Part shown: piece by piece, positions 4,684 through 25,683 of the stretch
How the letters are laid out: every line of letters begins with the position of its first letter
Numbering within the stretch: the stretch's first letter is position 1
Origin: a virus
Lineage: Duplodnaviria; Heunggongvirae; Uroviricota; Caudoviricetes
Reading direction: 5' to 3' (one strand)
DNA length: 38,081 nucleotides
Virus record (IMG/VR): IMGVR_UViG_2534681701_000006
Made by a program: the position numbers and the translations under genes
The notes under the pieces: generated by a model
What the model saw: the letters and a program-made list of their open reading frames with translations, nothing else
Told to the model about the DNA's origin: nothing
Databases searched by the model: none

Positions 4684-6453
4684 TCAGTTGCCGTTAACAA
4701 TGCTGATAACACTGCTGCGGGCCGGTGTGGTCAGCGTGGCCATGACTTCATCCAGTGCGGCTTCCGGTACGCCGTCCGGGTACTGTGCCGTTAACTGGCG
4801 GTAATGTTCCGGCGTCCAGGTAAGGCCGTCGGCGCTGAACTTATCGCGCAGGGCTTTCGCGGCCTCCACATGAGTCATGGGACGTTGTTCAGTGCGCGGC
4901 CCGCGTACGTCAGAGGCCTGACCACGCTTCGGCATATAGGCCGGAAGTGTGGTGTCGTCGATATGTTTATACGGGTCAAGCCGCCCGCCGAACGGCAGCG
5001 CCTTCGCCTTGCGTGCGGCGGCTGCATCTGCGGCGTTGTCTGTACCGGTAACCAGCGCTTCGGTTTCTTTTGCCGCCATCTGTGCCGGGGTTTCCGGCAG
5101 GGCTTTGTAACTTTCGCCAAATACCGCCGCGCCTTCAGCAAAGCCAAACTTGTTCTTTCTGACCTCTTCGACCAGGAAGAACGTCTCGTGGCCGTCCTCA
5201 CCGGTCAGAACCACCTGTGCCACATCGCTGCGCCATGGGTTACGGGTAATCATCAGTTTTTCACCAACCAGTACGCCCGGTACCGTTGATACGTCAAATT
5301 CAGTGCCCCGGAACGAGACACGAAGTTTTGGCGTGACTTTGCGGAGTTCTGGTGCCGCCACAGCCAGTTCACGACATACCTCAACGGAAGGCGCTTTTTT
5401 CAGCTGCTCAGCAGTAATCTTCAGCCAGATATCCGTGCGGGTTTTACCGTGGCGGCTGTGAACAGCCGTGGCGTTAAAGTGGCTGCGCCATTTCGCGGCC
5501 AGCGCGTTGAGTTCTTCCAGACTGTGAACCGGCCGGAACTTCAGACCCGGCTCCAGCTTGCGTTCGATAATGTCACGCGCCTTTTCCACCTGTCCGGTGG
5601 CGCGGGCGTTATGCGGCTTGTGCGCTATCAGGTCGATGCCCAGTGAGCGGCACATGTTTTTCGTCATACCCGCGGTGTTTGCCGAGCCGGGGTCGAGATA
5701 GAGTATTTTCGGCACGCCGTGCAGCACGTCTGCGCCGCCACGCTCCTGCATGGCGTTGATAAGCACAGAACACAGGTTCTCACCTGATTCCGCGCCCGTC
5801 ACATACTCAACGTAAATCCAGCCGCTGGCATGGTCGGTAATCTCGTAACTCCACACGCGGTCACTGGCGATACGGGCAAGGTTAGCGGGCTTGTTCTTGT
5901 AGAACTTCGCGCTGTCCATCACCTGCAGCCCTTTATGTCCATTGCTCAGGTAGTAAAGCGTGCAGAGTGAGGCGTCAATCTGCCAGACATGATTGGGATG
6001 CAGACTGGCCACTTCGGTATGTGGTGCAGGGGCATCCAGTTGTTCCGGGTGCAGGCCATAGTTACGCAGAGCACGGCTGATGGCATCTTCAGACAACGGG
6101 AAAAACTCACCGGTGGTTTCATCTGTTCTGCCTGCGGTGATAAAGCCGTTAGCCCGCAGGGTTTCCACTGCATCTGCGATGGAATAGAGACGCTTACCGT
6201 TCTTGCGGGTGGCCTCACGCAGTGTGGCAGATATCAGCGCGGCTTCGTCGCGGGTCAGGGCGCTGCGCCCGGCATCGGCGCGTTTTTTGCGTTTATCAGT
6301 CACAGATACCTCCTTCAGCCTGCGCAGCAGAGTGGCGCGGGACATGCCAAGTTCAGCACAGGCAGCGTCGTATATTGCACCGCGTTTACCATGCCCCGCG
6401 TCACGTGCCGCGCGGGCTGTTTCAACCAGTTTTTCAGTCAGTGCCGGGGTCAT
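4684..6453 (-). CDS. DDE transposase, MuA/TnsB-type (Mu transposase family), 589 aa
   Basis: Integrase-core-like region (HVWQIDAS…) and size; immediately upstream of the AAA+ ATPase partner, as in Mu A-B. Confidence 0.85.
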   Translation of the reverse strand: MTPALTEKLVETARAARDAGHGKRGAIYDAACAELGMSRATLLRRLKEVSVTDKRKKRADAGRSALTRDEAALISATLREATRKNGKRLYSIADAVETLRANGFITAGRTDETTGEFFPLSEDAISRALRNYGLHPEQLDAPAPHTEVASLHPNHVWQIDASLCTLYYLSNGHKGLQVMDSAKFYKNKPANLARIASDRVWSYEITDHASGWIYVEYVTGAESGENLCSVLINAMQERGGADVLHGVPKILYLDPGSANTAGMTKNMCRSLGIDLIAHKPHNARATGQVEKARDIIERKLEPGLKFRPVHSLEELNALAAKWRSHFNATAVHSRHGKTRTDIWLKITAEQLKKAPSVEVCRELAVAAPELRKVTPKLRVSFRGTEFDVSTVPGVLVGEKLMITRNPWRSDVAQVVLTGEDGHETFFLVEEVRKNKFGFAEGAAVFGESYKALPETPAQMAAKETEALVTGTDNAADAAAARKAKALPFGGRLDPYKHIDDTTLPAYMPKRGQASDVRGPRTEQRPMTHVEAAKALRDKFSADGLTWTPEHYRQLTAQYPDGVPEAALDEVMATLTTPARSSVISIVNGN

Positions 6454-6468
6454 AGCTTGTCTTCCCTG

Positions 6469-6786
6469 TTATCCGATTCTGGCGGCAATTTTTCTGGCGA
6501 GGTCGCACAGTGTTTCGCCATCGCAGGTTTTCACCACGGTATTTACCGGTTGCGGTGCAACTACCGGGCGTAATGCTGACTGATTCTGCAGACGTCTTAT
6601 CTGCTGCATCAGCATCACCTCCATCGTCAGTACAAACGGGTGCGTCTCCTGTGCGGGTACGCAGATTTCACCGGAAGGGGTCACCACGCGGAAACCCTGC
6701 ACCATCTCCGGCAGCAGATTACACAGTGCGTGCCCCAGTGCCTCCGGGCTGTCCATCAGGGTATTTTGTGTGTTATTCGTATTCAT
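6469..6786 (-). CDS. hypothetical protein, 105 aa
   Basis: ORF between the regulators and the transposase; abuts the next gene. Confidence 0.45.
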   Translation of the reverse strand: MNTNNTQNTLMDSPEALGHALCNLLPEMVQGFRVVTPSGEICVPAQETHPFVLTMEVMLMQQIRRLQNQSALRPVVAPQPVNTVVKTCDGETLCDLARKIAARIG

Positions 6787-7706
6787 TACTGCATATCCTC
6801 CGGTCGGTTGATTTCAGGTTCCGGTTCGGTCAGCCAGGCGGGGGCATCGTTACCCGATGGAGCGGCCTCAAGGTCAAACGTCTCACGTAATGCATGAACA
6901 CTGCGTTCAATCTGGCAGACCAGACCGGCCATGAAATCTCTGGGGGTATCGATCATGTTTTTGGTGCAGTATTCACACAGGGTCTCAAAAACACTGGACA
7001 GCCGGACGGCGATAGCCGATTCGGCCTCAACCGCTAATGCCGTCACTTCCGCCCGCAATTTTTTCAGTTCTTCGTCTGGCGGCGGAGGTTGCAGGCGCGA
7101 TTTCTTCTCCAGTTTTGTGGCCAGTTCGTTGATTTTTTCGTCCTTTCCGGCAAGCACCTGTTGCTGAGCTGCGTTGGTTTCGCGCGCTTCACGCAGGGCG
7201 GCCTTCAGTTCGCGGCTGGTCATGCGATCAATATCATCAAGCGTTGCACCGGCGACGGTTCCACCATCAGCTAATGCGTCGAGTTCTTCGTCATCCAGAA
7301 CCATCAGTTCATATAACTTGGTTTTTCCCAAAACGCTCAGCGCTGAGCGTTTTGGCTGTTCATCTCCATTGCCGAGAAATTTCACGCTGGCCTGCATCAT
7401 GCGACGAGCTACCTGTGGTGCTAATCCGAGGTCGTTTTCCAGAATATTTGTGAAATCACCATGCGGTTCATTTTCTTTTAAGATGATCAGCCGCTTACCC
7501 GCTTCCAACATAGATTCAGCACTCTGCGCCATATAAAAACGTGCTTCGTGAACGATGCGTTCACGTTCATAAGGCAGTCCATCACCAAACTGCTGCATGA
7601 TCTCCATGCGATGCTGTGTCATGGCATTCAGGCTGACGTTGAGATCATCCGACAGCGGTACATCGGCGTTCAGTTCAGTGTTAATCGGTGATTTGGTACG
7701 TCCCAT
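6786..7706 (-). CDS. hypothetical protein with central coiled-coil, 306 aa
   Basis: Long ORF with charged, coiled-coil-like central region; family not recognised with certainty (possibly DUF3102-like). Confidence 0.55.
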   Translation of the reverse strand: MGRTKSPINTELNADVPLSDDLNVSLNAMTQHRMEIMQQFGDGLPYERERIVHEARFYMAQSAESMLEAGKRLIILKENEPHGDFTNILENDLGLAPQVARRMMQASVKFLGNGDEQPKRSALSVLGKTKLYELMVLDDEELDALADGGTVAGATLDDIDRMTSRELKAALREARETNAAQQQVLAGKDEKINELATKLEKKSRLQPPPPDEELKKLRAEVTALAVEAESAIAVRLSSVFETLCEYCTKNMIDTPRDFMAGLVCQIERSVHALRETFDLEAAPSGNDAPAWLTEPEPEINRPEDMQ

Positions 7707-7716
7707 TGATTACTCC

Positions 7717-8031
7717 TTACAAACGACTACCTGAAATGACACGTTGGTTAATTTCGTTAATACGATCCTGTGCACGTGCCATCTCGTTACTGTGGGCCAT
7801 GGCGATCTGCAGTAACTGGATGCCCGGTGCAAAACGTCCGTTCTCCAGTTTCAGAGCCAGCCCTTCTTCAATGAGGGTGTTGAGTGCCCGGTTGATGTTT
7901 GCCGGTGACTCGTGCAGTGCTGTCGCCAGTTCACCGTTAGAAATACCGTTCAGGGCATGACCGCGCAGCGCTTTGAGTACCCGGAGGATGCGACTGCCGG
8001 AGCTTGAAACATTCGTCTTACTCATCTGCAT
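7717..8031 (-). CDS. putative winged-helix DNA-binding regulator, 104 aa
   Basis: HTH-like segment ISNGELATALHESPANINRALNTLIEEGLAL; AGAGG RBS; start may be the ATG at 8025. Confidence 0.5.
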   Translation of the reverse strand: MQMSKTNVSSSGSRILRVLKALRGHALNGISNGELATALHESPANINRALNTLIEEGLALKLENGRFAPGIQLLQIAMAHSNEMARAQDRINEINQRVISGSRL

Positions 8032-8077
8032 ACCTCTTTTGCGATATGTGATAACCTTTTACAAAGACTCAAAATAT

Positions 8078-8266
8078 TTAGGCCGCCTGAGCTGTTGATT
8101 TCAGTCCCAACTTCACGGCGATTTCATGGGATTTACCGTAACGGGCTTTGGTCTGCCCGTTGAGAACGCGGTATACCTCATTGCGGTTGTAGCCGTTTTC
8201 TTCTGCCCAGCGGGTGAAAGTGATCCCGCGCTGGCGGAAGAGAGCTTTGACTTGTTCTGCAGTCAT
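8078..8266 (-). CDS. Cro/Ner-like small HTH regulator, 62 aa
   Basis: Small basic HTH protein, first gene of the early operon, divergent from the repressor; the position of Mu ner. Confidence 0.6.
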   Translation of the reverse strand: MTAEQVKALFRQRGITFTRWAEENGYNRNEVYRVLNGQTKARYGKSHEIAVKLGLKSTAQAA

Positions 8267-8319
8267 CGTTGTCTCCTTTGTTGATGCAATGATGTTTGCC
8301 TTATATGTGTTAGATTATT

Positions 8320-8335
8320 GCTCATAATTATGAGC
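8320..8335. promoter_or_regulatory. perfect 16-bp palindrome GCTCATAATTATGAGC in the divergent control region (candidate operator)
   Basis: Read directly; lies between divergently transcribed regulator genes, about 25 bp upstream of the repressor start. Confidence 0.45.
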
Positions 8336-8359
8336 ATATCAAGATAGAGATTCACTTTT

Positions 8360-8716
8360 ATGAGCAAAGATATAGGAGAGCGCGTTATTTCTGTGAGGAA
8401 GAAAGCAGGGTTGAACCAGAGAGAATTTGCAGCTCGTTTAGGTATTTCTAATGGTGGTATCAGTCAGATTGAAAATGGAAAGGCGATGCCTGGAGGGGAG
8501 TTTCTGTTAAAGATGCATCAAGAGTTTAATGTTGATGTAAATTGGTTGCTCACTGGAATGAGCACAGATGGTATGACTAGAAACCAGAATCAAATTTCCC
8601 CAGAAAAACAAAAACTAATAGATACTTTTGACGACATGACACCAGACCAACAACGCTCATTTCTTGAGATTGGGCGATTCTATACTCAGCCAAAACCAGG
8701 AAAAATCGCAGGCTGA
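8360..8716 (+). CDS. XRE-family (Cro/CI-type HTH) repressor, 118 aa
   Basis: N-terminal HTH signature (LNQREFAARLGISNGGISQIENGK); divergent from the early operon. Confidence 0.75.
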   Translation: MSKDIGERVISVRKKAGLNQREFAARLGISNGGISQIENGKAMPGGEFLLKMHQEFNVDVNWLLTGMSTDGMTRNQNQISPEKQKLIDTFDDMTPDQQRSFLEIGRFYTQPKPGKIAG

Positions 8717-8801
8717 TACTGACCCGGACACAAAGGACAGGTGGTTGATCTGGATGCTTTCAGAAAACATCGCCAGTGACATAGTGGAAGTTGTTTGGTT
8801 T

Positions 8802-8834
8802 ACCGGAAAGCATTGTGCTTTCCGGTTTTGTTTC
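8802..8834 (+). terminator. rho-independent terminator downstream of the repressor gene
   Basis: Stem ACCGGAAAGC / GCTTTCCGGT with loop ATTGT, followed by TTTTGTTTC. Confidence 0.5.
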
Positions 8835-9597
8835 AGAAGTTGCAGATTAGCAGTTCACGGCGCGGCGTGGGTTTACCCGCCAGACTGTAGTTGATATTCA
8901 CTGTCTGTATGTTCAGTCCAGTGAACACCTCGCGCATCTGCGGGATGTCGTTCACCGAAATTATCATTTTTCCTCTGATGCACCGGGCCAGCTCTGCCAG
9001 CCGCGAGTAGTTCCCTTCAGGAAAATCCACACCATAGCCTTCCGTACCCAGGTACGGTGGGTCGCAGTAGAACAGCGTGTGCGGACGATCATAACGCTCA
9101 ATGCACTGTTGCCAGTCCATGTGTTCTATGACTGTTCTGGAAAGCCGCAGGTGTGCCGCTGACAGTTCTTCTTCAATACGTAGCAGGTTGAAGCGTGGCG
9201 GGGATGTGGTGGAGGTACCGAAGCTGTGCTCTGCCACCTTGCCGCCAAACGCCTGCTTCTGAAGGTAGTAGAACCGTGCCGCACGCTGGATATCCGTCAG
9301 TGTTTCTTCCGGGGTGATCTGCAGCCATTTGTAGATCTGACGGCTGACCAGCGCCCATTTGAACTGGCGGACAAATTCTTCCAGGTGATGCTTTACCACC
9401 CGGTACAGATTCACCAGTTCACCGTTGATATCATTGATGACTTCGATCTTGCCGGGTGTCTTAAGAAAATAGAGCGCTGCTGCCCCACAAAACGGCTCCA
9501 CATAACATTCATGCGCCGGAAACAGCGGCAGAATGTGTTTTGCAAGGCGGCGTTTGCCACCAATCCACGGCACGATGGGTAATGTCTGCATTTTCAT
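8833..9597 (-). CDS. DNA N6-adenine methyltransferase, Dam/D12 class (orphan, no cognate endonuclease seen)
   Basis: PWIGGKRRL (Dam motif-I-like) near the N-terminus and catalytic DPPY; start most likely the ATG at 9597 rather than 9687. Confidence 0.8.
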   Translation of the reverse strand: MKMQTLPIVPWIGGKRRLAKHILPLFPAHECYVEPFCGAAALYFLKTPGKIEVINDINGELVNLYRVVKHHLEEFVRQFKWALVSRQIYKWLQITPEETLTDIQRAARFYYLQKQAFGGKVAEHSFGTSTTSPPRFNLLRIEEELSAAHLRLSRTVIEHMDWQQCIERYDRPHTLFYCDPPYLGTEGYGVDFPEGNYSRLAELARCIRGKMIISVNDIPQMREVFTGLNIQTVNINYSLAGKPTPRRELLICNF

Positions 9598-9787
9598 AAT
9601 CTGTAAGCCTTTTACAATTATTAAAAAATATGGCAGTCTGGTCAGGTCTCGCGAGACTGACTGAACCTTGGTCGGCTCACAGCGCATTCCTGTGGGGCGA
9701 TGACCAGCCCGGCTTTCGGGTGCCGGGCTGGTCGTTCTTTCATGATGCGGCAGGGATGGCGGGATTTCTGTTAATGTGGTTTAGGGA

Positions 9788-24266: not shown

Positions 24267-25683
24267 CTATCTGCATGGTCCCGAAACCATTGAGGTGGAA
24301 AACGGTGCCCGCCCGGTTAAAACGGTGAAATCTGCCGTTATTGGCCTGATTGGTACCGCCCCGATGGGGGATGTCAATACGCTGGTACAGTGCCTGTCTG
24401 AGAAAGACGCAGCGGCATTTGGCAGCCAGTTCACCGGCTTTACCATTCCGCAGGCGCTGGATGCGATTTATGACCATGGTGCAGGCACCGTTCTGGTCAT
24501 TAACGTCCTCGACCCGGCGAAACATAAAACGGCGATCGAGGATGAGGTGGTTACCTTTGACAAATCGACAGGGCAGGCCAGACTGGCGCATCCGGTTGTC
24601 GCTAATGTGGTGGTGAAAAACAGTGAAGGCAGCACCACCCACACGGCGAACACGGACTACCGTGTTGATGCGCAGGCGGGTGTGCTCACGAACCTGGGCA
24701 AGGCTATTGAGGCCGGTGGCAGCGTGAAGGTGAGCTATGAGTACGCGGACCCGTCGAAGGTGACTGCGGCGGACATCATCGGCGGGGTGAACAGCGCCGG
24801 AAACCGAACCGGCATGAAGCTGCTTAACGACAGCTTCAACCTGTACGGCTATTTCGCCAAAATTCTGATTGCGCCGGTGTTCTGCACCCAGAAGAGTGTC
24901 GCAGTTGAGCTTATCGCCATGGCAGAGAAGCTGGGCGCGGTAACCTACATTGATGCGCCTGTCGGTACCACCTTTGCACAGGCTCTGGCAGGTCGTGGCC
25001 CGGAAGGCACCATCAACTTCAATACCAGCTCCGACCGCGTCCGTCTGTGCTATCCGCATGTGAAGGTATATGACCCGGTGACAAACACAGAGCGTCTGGA
25101 GCCGCTCAGCCAGCGTGCAGCAGGTCTGCGTGCCAGAGTCGATCTGGACAAGGGCTACTGGTGGTCATCCTCCAATCAGGAGATTCTGGGGATCACCGGC
25201 GTGGAGCGCCAGCTGTCCGCGATGATTGATGACCCGCAGAGTGAGGTGAACCTGCTTAACGAACAGGGGATCACCACGGTATTCAGCAGTTACGGCAGCG
25301 GCCTTCGTCTGTGGGGTAACCGGACGGCAGCATGGCCAACGGTCACCCATATGCGTAACTTTGAGAACGTTCGCCGCACCGGTGATGTGATCAACGAGTC
25401 CATTCGTTATTTCAGCCAGCAGTACATCGACATGCCGATTACTCAGGCGCTGATTGATGCACTGACGGAGTCGGTCAACGCCTACGGTCGCAAAATGACT
25501 GGTGATGGTGCGGTACTGGGCTTCCGTTGCTGGTTTGATCCGGCCCGCAATCCGGAGACGGAGCTGGCCGCCGGGCACCTGTTGCTGAGCTACAAATATA
25601 CGCCACCACCGCCGCTGGAGCGACTGACGTTTGAGACTGAGATCACCTCGGAATACCTGTTAACCCTGAAAGGGGGCAACTGA
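24256..25683 (+). CDS. contractile tail sheath protein (Mu L-like), 475 aa
   Basis: Size and position immediately upstream of the tube gene. Confidence 0.75.
   Translation: MAANYLHGPETIEVENGARPVKTVKSAVIGLIGTAPMGDVNTLVQCLSEKDAAAFGSQFTGFTIPQALDAIYDHGAGTVLVINVLDPAKHKTAIEDEVVTFDKSTGQARLAHPVVANVVVKNSEGSTTHTANTDYRVDAQAGVLTNLGKAIEAGGSVKVSYEYADPSKVTAADIIGGVNSAGNRTGMKLLNDSFNLYGYFAKILIAPVFCTQKSVAVELIAMAEKLGAVTYIDAPVGTTFAQALAGRGPEGTINFNTSSDRVRLCYPHVKVYDPVTNTERLEPLSQRAAGLRARVDLDKGYWWSSSNQEILGITGVERQLSAMIDDPQSEVNLLNEQGITTVFSSYGSGLRLWGNRTAAWPTVTHMRNFENVRRTGDVINESIRYFSQQYIDMPITQALIDALTESVNAYGRKMTGDGAVLGFRCWFDPARNPETELAAGHLLLSYKYTPPPPLERLTFETEITSEYLLTLKGGN

Follow-up and report, generated by a model that had tools for sequence, protein, structure and literature searches.

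In the lambdoid phages 434 and P22, the repressor recognizes operators with conserved symmetric outer bases (ACAA in 434) around some six variable central ones; three adjacent operators (OR1-3) lie between the promoters PR and PRM, the Cro protein shares these operators and co-varies with immunity, and the repressor carries a LexA-like S24 peptidase domain. In phage Mu, the repressor gene diverges from an early operon that opens with the small helix-turn-helix (HTH) protein Ner, acting at its own site, and continues with the transposition genes; the Mu repressor, of winged-helix type, shares homology with the N-terminus of the transposase MuA, and its operators O1-O3 are made of many non-palindromic repeats. 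The O1-O2 operator region of Mu is also an internal activation sequence, bound by the transposase domain that is homologous to the DNA-binding domain of the repressor. In the B3-like Pseudomonas phage Fc02, RNA-seq showed that inactivation of the repressor switches on the promoter pE in front of ner, and the word operator appears only in the reference list of that report, which gives no operator definition (PMC9936078). In our literature search we found no study defining the operators of BcepMu-like phages. Here we describe the control region of such a prophage, contained in a stretch of 38,081 nucleotides (IMG/VR record IMGVR_UViG_2534681701_000006, Caudoviricetes; the whole stretch is called the window hereafter), in which a perfect palindrome lies between the divergent genes of an XRE-type repressor and a small Ner-like protein. 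On sequence grounds, this palindrome is almost certainly the main DNA operator through which the prophage repressor shuts off the early lytic promoter, that is, a phage switch of an ordinary kind, where an operator/repressor pair like that of 434 and P22 would be set in a Mu/B3-like gene layout.

The original prediction had reported a perfect 16-bp palindrome in this divergent region (GCTCATAATTATGAGC) as the operator of the lysis/lysogeny switch. We confirmed it at exactly the same coordinates, 8320-8335, and found that the symmetry continues by one base at each end, the perfect palindrome being of 18 bp (TGCTCATAATTATGAGCA, 8319-8336). It stands inside a 93-bp gap (32% G+C) between the start of the leftward gene of 62 amino acids (8266) and that of the rightward XRE gene of 118 amino acids (8360). 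The elements of the switch are the following:

8319-8336, no strand: O1, putative primary operator, TGCTCA-TAATTA-TGAGCA; arms invariant and centre variable in relatives with the same recognition helix
8337-8342 (read 8342 to 8337), minus strand: -35 hexamer TTGATA of the predicted early promoter Pe, directly to the right of O1
8314-8319 (read 8319 to 8314), minus strand: -10 hexamer AATAAT of Pe, overlapping O1 by 1 bp
8078-8266, minus strand: Ner-like small HTH gene (62 amino acids, gp16 hereafter), first of the early operon; BcepMu gp16 family, TIGR04111, 97.4 bits
8360-8716, plus strand: immunity repressor gene (118 amino acids); N-terminal XRE/434-like HTH, C-terminal part resembling the oligomerisation region of SinR

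Pe was the only sigma70-like promoter detected on either strand of 6400-8900 (TTGATA-17-AATAAT, 10 of 12 consensus matches), and O1 constitutes its whole 17-nt spacer. It is oriented leftward, into gp16 and the transposase operon. The overlap of the palindrome with -10 and -35 elements, as envisaged by the original prediction, was found, and it would correspond to a sigma70 promoter occluded by its repressor. The same register occurs in 40 of the 49 distinct control regions that resulted from a gp16-anchored survey of 64 loci from Gamma- and Betaproteobacteria. The position of the Pe -10 is kept family-wide as [A/C]ATAAT, and the -35 equivalents of other immunity types read TTTACA, TTGACT, TTGACA and TTGAAA.

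Taken alone, the O1 palindrome is not statistically remarkable. Perfect palindromes with arms of at least 9 bp arose in 46 of 300 Markov-1 random 38-kb windows (15%), and the longest palindrome of the window is found elsewhere, at 7328-7355, being longer than O1. Together with the low G+C content of the intergenic region, these figures would be compatible with a chance AT-rich palindrome devoid of function, but this is the least probable of the readings that we considered: O1 occupies the exact spacer of a promoter, its arms recur twice more within 250 bp, they are conserved around a drifting centre in diverged relatives, and perfect inverted repeats fill the equivalent spacer in 25 of the 49 control regions against 1.4% by chance. 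The significance of O1 thus comes from its promoter-spacer position in one 93-bp intergenic region, from the recurrence of its arms and from the comparative data. A dispersed repeat was also considered, and the 18-bp palindrome proved to be single in the window even when up to 3 mismatches were allowed (0.19 expected). The exact 18-mer is present on 10 IMG/VR contigs, two of them unrelated giant-virus sequence from metagenome-assembled genomes and eight with the same prophage context, of which six encode an identical repressor and two more were read directly. As for additional copies, the full palindrome has no second one but its arms recur nearby, exactly at 8547 and in degenerate form at 8349. 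TGCTCA-N6-TGAGCA with at most one mismatch has three matches in the whole window (0.13 expected), exact at 8319 and 8547 and with one mismatch at 24683; the pattern TGNTCA-N6-TGANCA also has only three matches in the 38 kb, all of them at 8319-8927, within 610 bp (0.05 expected).

The protein encoded to the right of O1 belongs to the XRE/HTH_3 regulators of the lambda-434-P22 Cro/CI type, its profile scores being above the curated thresholds (HTH_3, PF01381, 55.8 bits for a cut-off of 23; Phage_CI_repr, PF07022, 25.4 bits for a cut-off of 22). Its top named matches in PDB are the DNA-binding domain of the 434 repressor (1per, E 3e-8) and P22 C2, and it shows 41% identity over 63 amino acids with a 434 repressor sequence entered by hand. 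Residues 5-106 align to residues 2-103 of Bacillus subtilis SinR (1b0n), which is nearly the full length, with 31% identity over 108 amino acids to a SinR sequence likewise entered by hand. SinR also combines an XRE HTH with a short C-terminal helical region, and it oligomerises through this C-terminal region. Unlike in SinR, no Sin domain was detected by Pfam in the repressor, and tblastn of the window with its C-terminal 48 amino acids gave only the self-match, with no SinI-like partner. The C-terminal part (approximately residues 71-118, window 8570-8716) is conserved across immunity types with 56-85% identity while the HTH domain is swapped, and all variants end in ...KPxK[ILF][AVT][GS]. 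By analogy, a SinR-like oligomerisation could couple the binding of the repressor at several spaced sites. Pfam found no S24 peptidase domain in this protein of only 118 amino acids, and therefore a lambda-style RecA-mediated self-cleavage is not expected. Separately, a 16-nt inverted repeat with 15 of 16 positions matched (CACCGTTAGAAATACC, 7932-7947; GGTATTTCTAATGGTG, 8441-8456) flanks the control region, and both of its arms encode G-I-S-N-G on opposite strands, one in the winged-helix gene that follows gp16 and the other in the recognition helix of the repressor. It is probably a coincidence or recent, because the repressors of relatives encode the same peptide with other codons.

Four independent comparisons assign O1 to the divergent XRE repressor as its likely reader. 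In relatives whose repressors are 64-67% identical to that of the window and share the helix GISNGGISQIE (IMG/VR contigs plus one Symbiopectobacterium genome), TGCTCA-N6-TGAGCA is kept at O1 in all cases, with TAATTA, TTATTT or CAATAA as centre and with diverged flanks. The arms are invariant in six lineages at O1 and also at the intragenic site O3 described below and, as regards the site pattern, this symmetry with conserved outer and variable central bases is that of a 434/P22-type operator; invariant arms around a drifting 6-bp centre would thus correspond to the site of a 434-type dimer. In five other Escherichia coli immunity types, gp16 and the left half of the intergenic region are near-identical to those of the window, and an unrelated palindrome occupies the same slot directly after the conserved TAGATTAT, each one followed by a minus-strand -35-like hexamer:

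O1 slot in the other E. coli immunity types: TATCCCAAAAATGGGATA; GGTGCAGATTATCTCACC; ATGAGAACTATTGTTCTCAT; GGTAGAAAATTTTCAACC; TGTCTAAAAAATTAGACA

DNA homology to these five types ends at 8318-8320 and is regained within the repressor gene, at 8549-8602. The swapped segment encodes an unrelated HTH domain, the N-terminal part of the protein being 29-34% identical and the C-terminal part 56-77%. These breaks of homology delimit the following unit:

8319-8600, no strand: exchangeable immunity cassette, comprising O1, the Pe -35, O2 (see below), the region coding for the HTH domain, and O3

In 25 of the 49 control regions, the spacer of the best gp16-facing promoter holds an inverted repeat whose 6-bp arms match perfectly (null 1.3-1.5%), and in 15 more the arms match at 5 of 6 positions (null 13-15%); the set covers about 20 different operator specificities. 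Identical or near-identical recognition helices pair with identical half-sites in distant hosts:

Helix VSREMWGKYE: half-site TGAGAAC, E. coli and Pasteurellaceae
Helix KRT[FL]IDWE: half-site GGTGC[AG]G, E. coli and Pigmentiphaga
Helix SQ[IL]RWE: half-site TCCCA, E. coli, Photorhabdus/Xenorhabdus and Pseudomonas
Helix SQIGWE: half-site TGCCA, Pseudomonas

The two other small regulators of the locus behave in the opposite way. Immunity types whose operators are unrelated have gp16 proteins that are 74-98% identical, and gp16 lies outside the cassette, with the boundary at 8318/8319; the winged-helix protein bears one and the same accession in three prophages that differ in their palindromes. 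Because both stay constant while the palindrome changes, neither of them is expected to read O1. In this sense, we regard as highly improbable that gp16 binds the palindrome, instead of the repressor or sharing it in the manner of lambda Cro and CI. The palindrome is directly upstream of gp16, Cro-type proteins bind palindromes in such regions, and the lambdoid analogy drawn by the original prediction would lead to this expectation; yet the gp16 proteins of the window and of one other prophage (L002) are 98% identical with TGCTCA... as the site in the former and GGTGCAG... in the latter, the palindrome tracks the helix of the repressor, and a block conserved family-wide at 8281-8309 would be a more natural target for gp16.

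O1 is accompanied by other sites carrying its arms:

8349-8366, no strand: O2, operator-like but weaker, GATTCA-CTTTTA-TGAGCA, spanning the start codon of the repressor; 30 bp between its centre and that of O1
8547-8564, no strand: O3, intragenic operator-like site TGCTCA-CTGGAA-TGAGCA with exact arms, in repressor codons 63-68 (LLTGMS)
8910-8927, no strand: possible fourth site TGTTCA-GTCCAG-TGAACA (TGTTCAGTCCAGTGAACA), within the 3' end of dam; considered with low confidence

The original prediction spoke of a single palindrome, and this did not hold, with a degenerate copy 30 bp away and an exact-arm copy 228 bp away, both conserved in six lineages. O2 (GATTCACTTTTATGAGCA) departs from the operator by 3 mismatches, and its GATTCA and TGAGCA are kept in all relatives with the same helix while the stretch between O1 and O2 diverges. 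O3 is found at +187 in all six lineages, again with a variable centre, and both sites keep constant positions relative to the repressor start codon. The repressor genes are 66-94% identical in DNA, and 13 of the 65 conserved degenerate codons (20%) are identical in all five aligned lineages; those under the arms of O2 and O3 are all invariant (Ser2 AGC, Leu64 CTC, Ser68 AGC and the TG of Leu63). In another immunity type with nearly the same peptide (ILTGMS), the left arm of O3 is degraded (TTCTTA...TGAGCA). Since synonymous codons are frozen under the arms and the O3 arm decays in the other immunity type, selection acts on O2 and O3 as DNA and is tied to the specificity of the window. A constant 198 bp, nearly 19 helical turns, separates O2 from O3. 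Additional sites of the own motif (up to 2 mismatches) are present in 7 of 20 specificity types compared with 6% in a cross-type control, usually 27-35 bp to the right of O1. Regarding the possible fourth site, it is a symmetric variant of the operator with one change per arm and it is not conserved in relatives, two of which carry instead a near-site just past the repressor stop codon. A second operator with the same half-sites, located in a coding sequence a few hundred bp away and selected at synonymous positions, recalls lac O2 in lacZ and gal OI in galE. Unlike these, the intragenic site is here in the repressor's own gene, and it may serve autoregulation besides any looping.

Concerning gp16, it belongs to the BcepMu gp16 family TIGR04111 (97.4 bits for an NCBIfam cut-off of 34) and falls below the gathering threshold of the Pfam Ner family HTH_35 (PF13693, 17.9 bits for 25), so that it is Ner-like by position and size only. 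Its candidate target is the following:

8281-8309, no strand: conserved block TTGATGCAATGATGTTTGCCTTATATGTG, flanked by the Pe -10 and by the ribosome-binding site of gp16; contains the extended -10-like TGcAATGAT at 8285-8293

The block reads TTGATGCAATGATGTTTG...TATGTG, and its core GCAAWGATGTTTG is kept from E. coli to Pseudomonas, Neisseriaceae and Burkholderiales (alignment A2), remaining constant while the adjoining operator changes. We consider it a candidate for the gp16 binding site, for the promoter of the repressor, or for both. As an observation apart, an open reading frame of 52 amino acids with the hydrophobic stretch LIAVVAVFFC runs antisense to gp16 (8126-8284, plus strand), and is putative only; in Fc02, lysogens express small genes antisense to ner and to gene 10, and these genes exclude other phages (PMC9936078).

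A consensus rightward promoter for the repressor was sought in 6400-8900 and none was found. A relaxed plus-strand -10 scan of the 49 control regions, with offsets counted from the Pe -10, placed the best hit at offset -3 or -1 in 23 of them, and gave another recurrent candidate at -26/-24, which in the window is the TGcAATGAT within the conserved block. The former are weak candidates:

8308-8316 (TGtTAGATT) or 8313-8318 (GATTAT), plus strand: candidate -10 elements of the repressor promoter, sharing the Pe -10 region (8308-8318)

Bidirectional promoters with a shared -10 have been described, in which divergent transcripts start about 18 bp apart around one symmetric -10 (Warman et al., PMC12825309). 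The sequence allows such an arrangement here, with GATTAT on the top strand facing AATAAT on the bottom one, in addition to TGtTAGATT. A leaderless repressor mRNA with its -10 at GAGATT was discarded as a general model: in many relatives, a ribosome-binding site of the AAGG(A/G) type adjoins O1 on its right and overlaps the Pe -35, so that transcription must begin further to the left.

If the repressor transcript starts to the left of 8319, the palindrome would be part of its leader, and it might act as RNA, either as a leader hairpin or with its left half and the right half of O2 hiding the start codon, in a control of translation or stability. Indeed, in the minimum-free-energy fold of 8305-8375, UUGCUCAUAA is paired with UUAUGAGCAA, AUG included. 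We nevertheless judge this very unlikely, given that the fold is no better than those of shuffled sequences (z = -1.69, 13/200), that transcription from the leading promoter candidates would begin within O1 and lack its left arm, and that O3 bears the same arms 228 nt away in a coding region. Moreover, a hairpin does not explain why the register of the site is fixed with respect to the -35 and -10 across some 20 specificities, nor why it co-varies with a protein helix.

The locus as a whole combines traits of different phages. Like 434 and P22, it has a repressor whose N-terminal domain is close to that of 434 and operators with conserved symmetric outer bases around about six variable ones. 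Unlike 434, the arms are the 6-bp TGCTCA, and unlike both phages there is no tripartite OR, but a strong site in the spacer, a weak one at 30 bp and one inside the gene; the gap between O1 and O2 is 12 bp and O3 lies 228 bp away, in place of three adjacent operators. The repressor ends in a SinR-like part and not in a self-cleavage domain, and the protein in the Cro position neither shares the operators nor co-varies with immunity. Thus, the CI/Cro arrangement suggested by the original prediction does not apply, as gp16 is 74-98% identical where the operators are unrelated and cannot share the operator as Cro does. Its view that a long palindrome speaks for a lambdoid rather than a Mu switch held for the XRE repressor and the 434/P22-like site, and failed for the single site, the shared operator and the S24 domain. 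Its identification of the palindrome as the switch operator was supported, given the location between the XRE repressor and the Ner-like gene, the overlap with promoter elements and the 434/P22-type anatomy.

Like Mu, the prophage has a repressor divergent from an early operon that opens with a small Ner-like HTH protein, which probably has a site of its own instead of using the operators of the repressor, and which is followed by transposition genes. Unlike Mu, the repressor is of XRE type with palindromic sites, and the small protein is of the gp16 family, below the HTH_35 cut-off. A Mu-style kinship between repressor and transposase was dropped after BLASTP of the repressor against the 589-amino-acid transposase showed no similarity (best E 21), the homology with the transposase N-terminus that defines the Mu type being absent. 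In Mu-like transposable elements such as this one, the operator region could double as, or mainly be, an enhancer of transposition bound by the transposase. This has little probability in the present case, considering this lack of similarity, that only the rve core domain was found in the transposase, and that the operator is swapped together with the repressor cassette while the DNA on the transposase side is still homologous. The region may have an enhancer role that is secondary to repression.

Fc02 resembles the window in having a homologue of the Ner-like gene and divergent promoters that overlap in a short intergenic region (PMC9936078), its pE, supported by RNA-seq, being the experimental analogue of Pe, and it differs in host and in repressor specificity. 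Its sequence shows a layout equal to that of the window (L097, 1776-1793), with TGGGACATCAAAGTCCCA in the spacer of a leftward promoter read by hand (-35 TTGACT, -10 CAATAT); a consensus scan of the region gave only a rightward TTGATA-17-CATAGT spanning the same palindrome. The lysogenic repressor transcript of Fc02 arises from a distal promoter, pC1, antisense to the early genes (PMC9936078), and our promoter scan of 6400-8900 found no counterpart of pC1 in the window.

Considering all this evidence, we estimate a probability of around 0.8 that O1 is the main operator by which the 118-amino-acid XRE repressor blocks Pe, with O2 and O3 as auxiliary sites and gp16 using another one. From the anatomy, the promoter match, the co-variation of site and recognition helix and the selection on the auxiliary sites, we infer the following binding and direction of regulation. 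In a repressor dimer, each helix-turn-helix would contact one of the outer hexamers (TGCTCA / TGAGCA), the 6 central bp of O1 not being read base by base. As O1 fills the spacer, the bound repressor would keep RNA polymerase off Pe; the early operon, including gp16 and the transposase, would then be silent, maintaining lysogeny and conferring superinfection immunity. O2 and O3 would probably act as auxiliary operators, with the conserved SinR-like C-terminal domain allowing the repressor to bind cooperatively or to loop the DNA, and/or would limit the repressor's own transcription, which traverses both sites and, if it starts to the left of 8337, O1 as well. The Ner-like gp16 would not use O1-O3 and would most likely bind the conserved block at 8281-8309. 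Besides the frequency of comparable palindromes in random windows, several points weigh against this interpretation. No consensus repressor promoter was found, on which its autoregulatory half would depend; of the other specificity types, only about one in three shows extra sites; 3 of the 12 arm positions differ between O2 and O1, and the left arm of O2 could be a promoter element instead; the distance of 227-228 bp between O1 and O3 does not correspond to a whole number of helical turns; and for this phage everything is deduced from sequence.

A wider reading seems plausible to us, although somewhat short of an even bet. BcepMu/B3-related transposable prophages of Gamma- and Betaproteobacteria might share a modular hybrid switch that is not lambda-like, in which a cassette is exchanged within a fixed scaffold. 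The scaffold would comprise gp16, its conserved target block and the Pe -10, whereas the cassette, joined between the -10 and the spacer, would carry the spacer operator, the -35, the 434-like HTH domain and the intragenic auxiliary operator. At least 20 orthogonal operator/repressor pairs would exist, with oligomers held by the SinR-like part bridging O1/O2 and O3. This family-wide architecture is a useful and unsurprising generalisation, and the switch described here does not change the understanding of phage switches, being a clean, ordinary example. The location of the operator and of the early promoter shows where mutation would make the prophage inducible or locked, and indicates which prophages should be co-immune. 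Furthermore, some 20 palindromes in one fixed promoter spacer, each with its own HTH, offer a testable set of helices and half-sites on the specificity of XRE-type regulators, for study or for engineering.

The window is a BcepMu-like prophage with a 100% match to Escherichia phage PhiKM (PQ738613.1, from uropathogenic E. coli and filed under Bcepmuvirus) over the 1.2-kb stretch compared. Its control region is present in approximately 390 of 5,426 complete E. coli genomes (about 7%), the surrounding 1.2 kb having a median of one place per genome, and many strain names among the genomes listed with it are ST131/O25b:H4. The immunity region of the prophage is poorly annotated. Indeed, the GenBank record of PhiKM has no call for the 118-amino-acid repressor and annotates an antisense 'hypothetical protein' of 41 amino acids at 6958-7083 (window ~8657-8782), and in RefSeq E. 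coli genomes the repressor gene is called. After gp16, the minus strand encodes the small winged-helix protein, a DUF3102 protein, a protein of 105 amino acids with no family match and the rve-type transposase of 589 amino acids. On the other side, the repressor gene converges with the dam gene (8833-9687, minus strand), and between them lies a further element:

8802-8826, no strand: terminator made of a hairpin (11-bp stem) and a T-run, in the gap where the repressor and dam genes converge; 88-92% conserved in relatives

This hairpin matches the terminator pattern in both orientations and is probably a bidirectional terminator common to both genes. An Rfam scan of the whole window found no known RNA family.

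Finally, two other palindromes were observed. The longest of the window is a perfect 28-bp palindrome (CCAAAACGCTCAGC|GCTGAGCGTTTTGG, 7328-7355) in the minus-strand DUF3102 gene (6786-7706), and it is arguably more unusual than the operator. At the same position of the gene, at least 19 other distinct relatives keep the palindrome and not the sequence (alignment A3: Enterobacterales, plus Lysobacter, Pseudoxanthomonas and Rubrivivax). The inner 5-8 bp differ among relatives with perfect compensation, compensatory changes affect 10 of 14 symmetric pairs, and 94.6% of the alignment cells are paired; the covariation score is 0.562, whereas shuffles give 0.165 and slid registers no more than 0.105. 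The outer CAAA[AT]...[AT]TTTG (A-tract/T-tract) is conserved and the encoded peptide changes. Folded as RNA, it gives a 12-bp stem of -19 kcal/mol with no Rfam match, and the pair next to the centre also co-varies (A-T and G-C in a ratio of 11:9), something that would be unnecessary in the loop of an RNA hairpin. The palindrome may act in both directions as an attenuator or terminator hairpin, or else be a hairpin/cruciform site at the DNA level. It is not the specific site of the winged-helix protein, because the same protein accompanies different inner sequences. Fc02 has no counterpart of it, with other genes at that position. The second one is a perfect, G+C-rich palindrome of 16 bp (GCGCCAGTACTGGCGC) at 85-100, near the left edge of the window.

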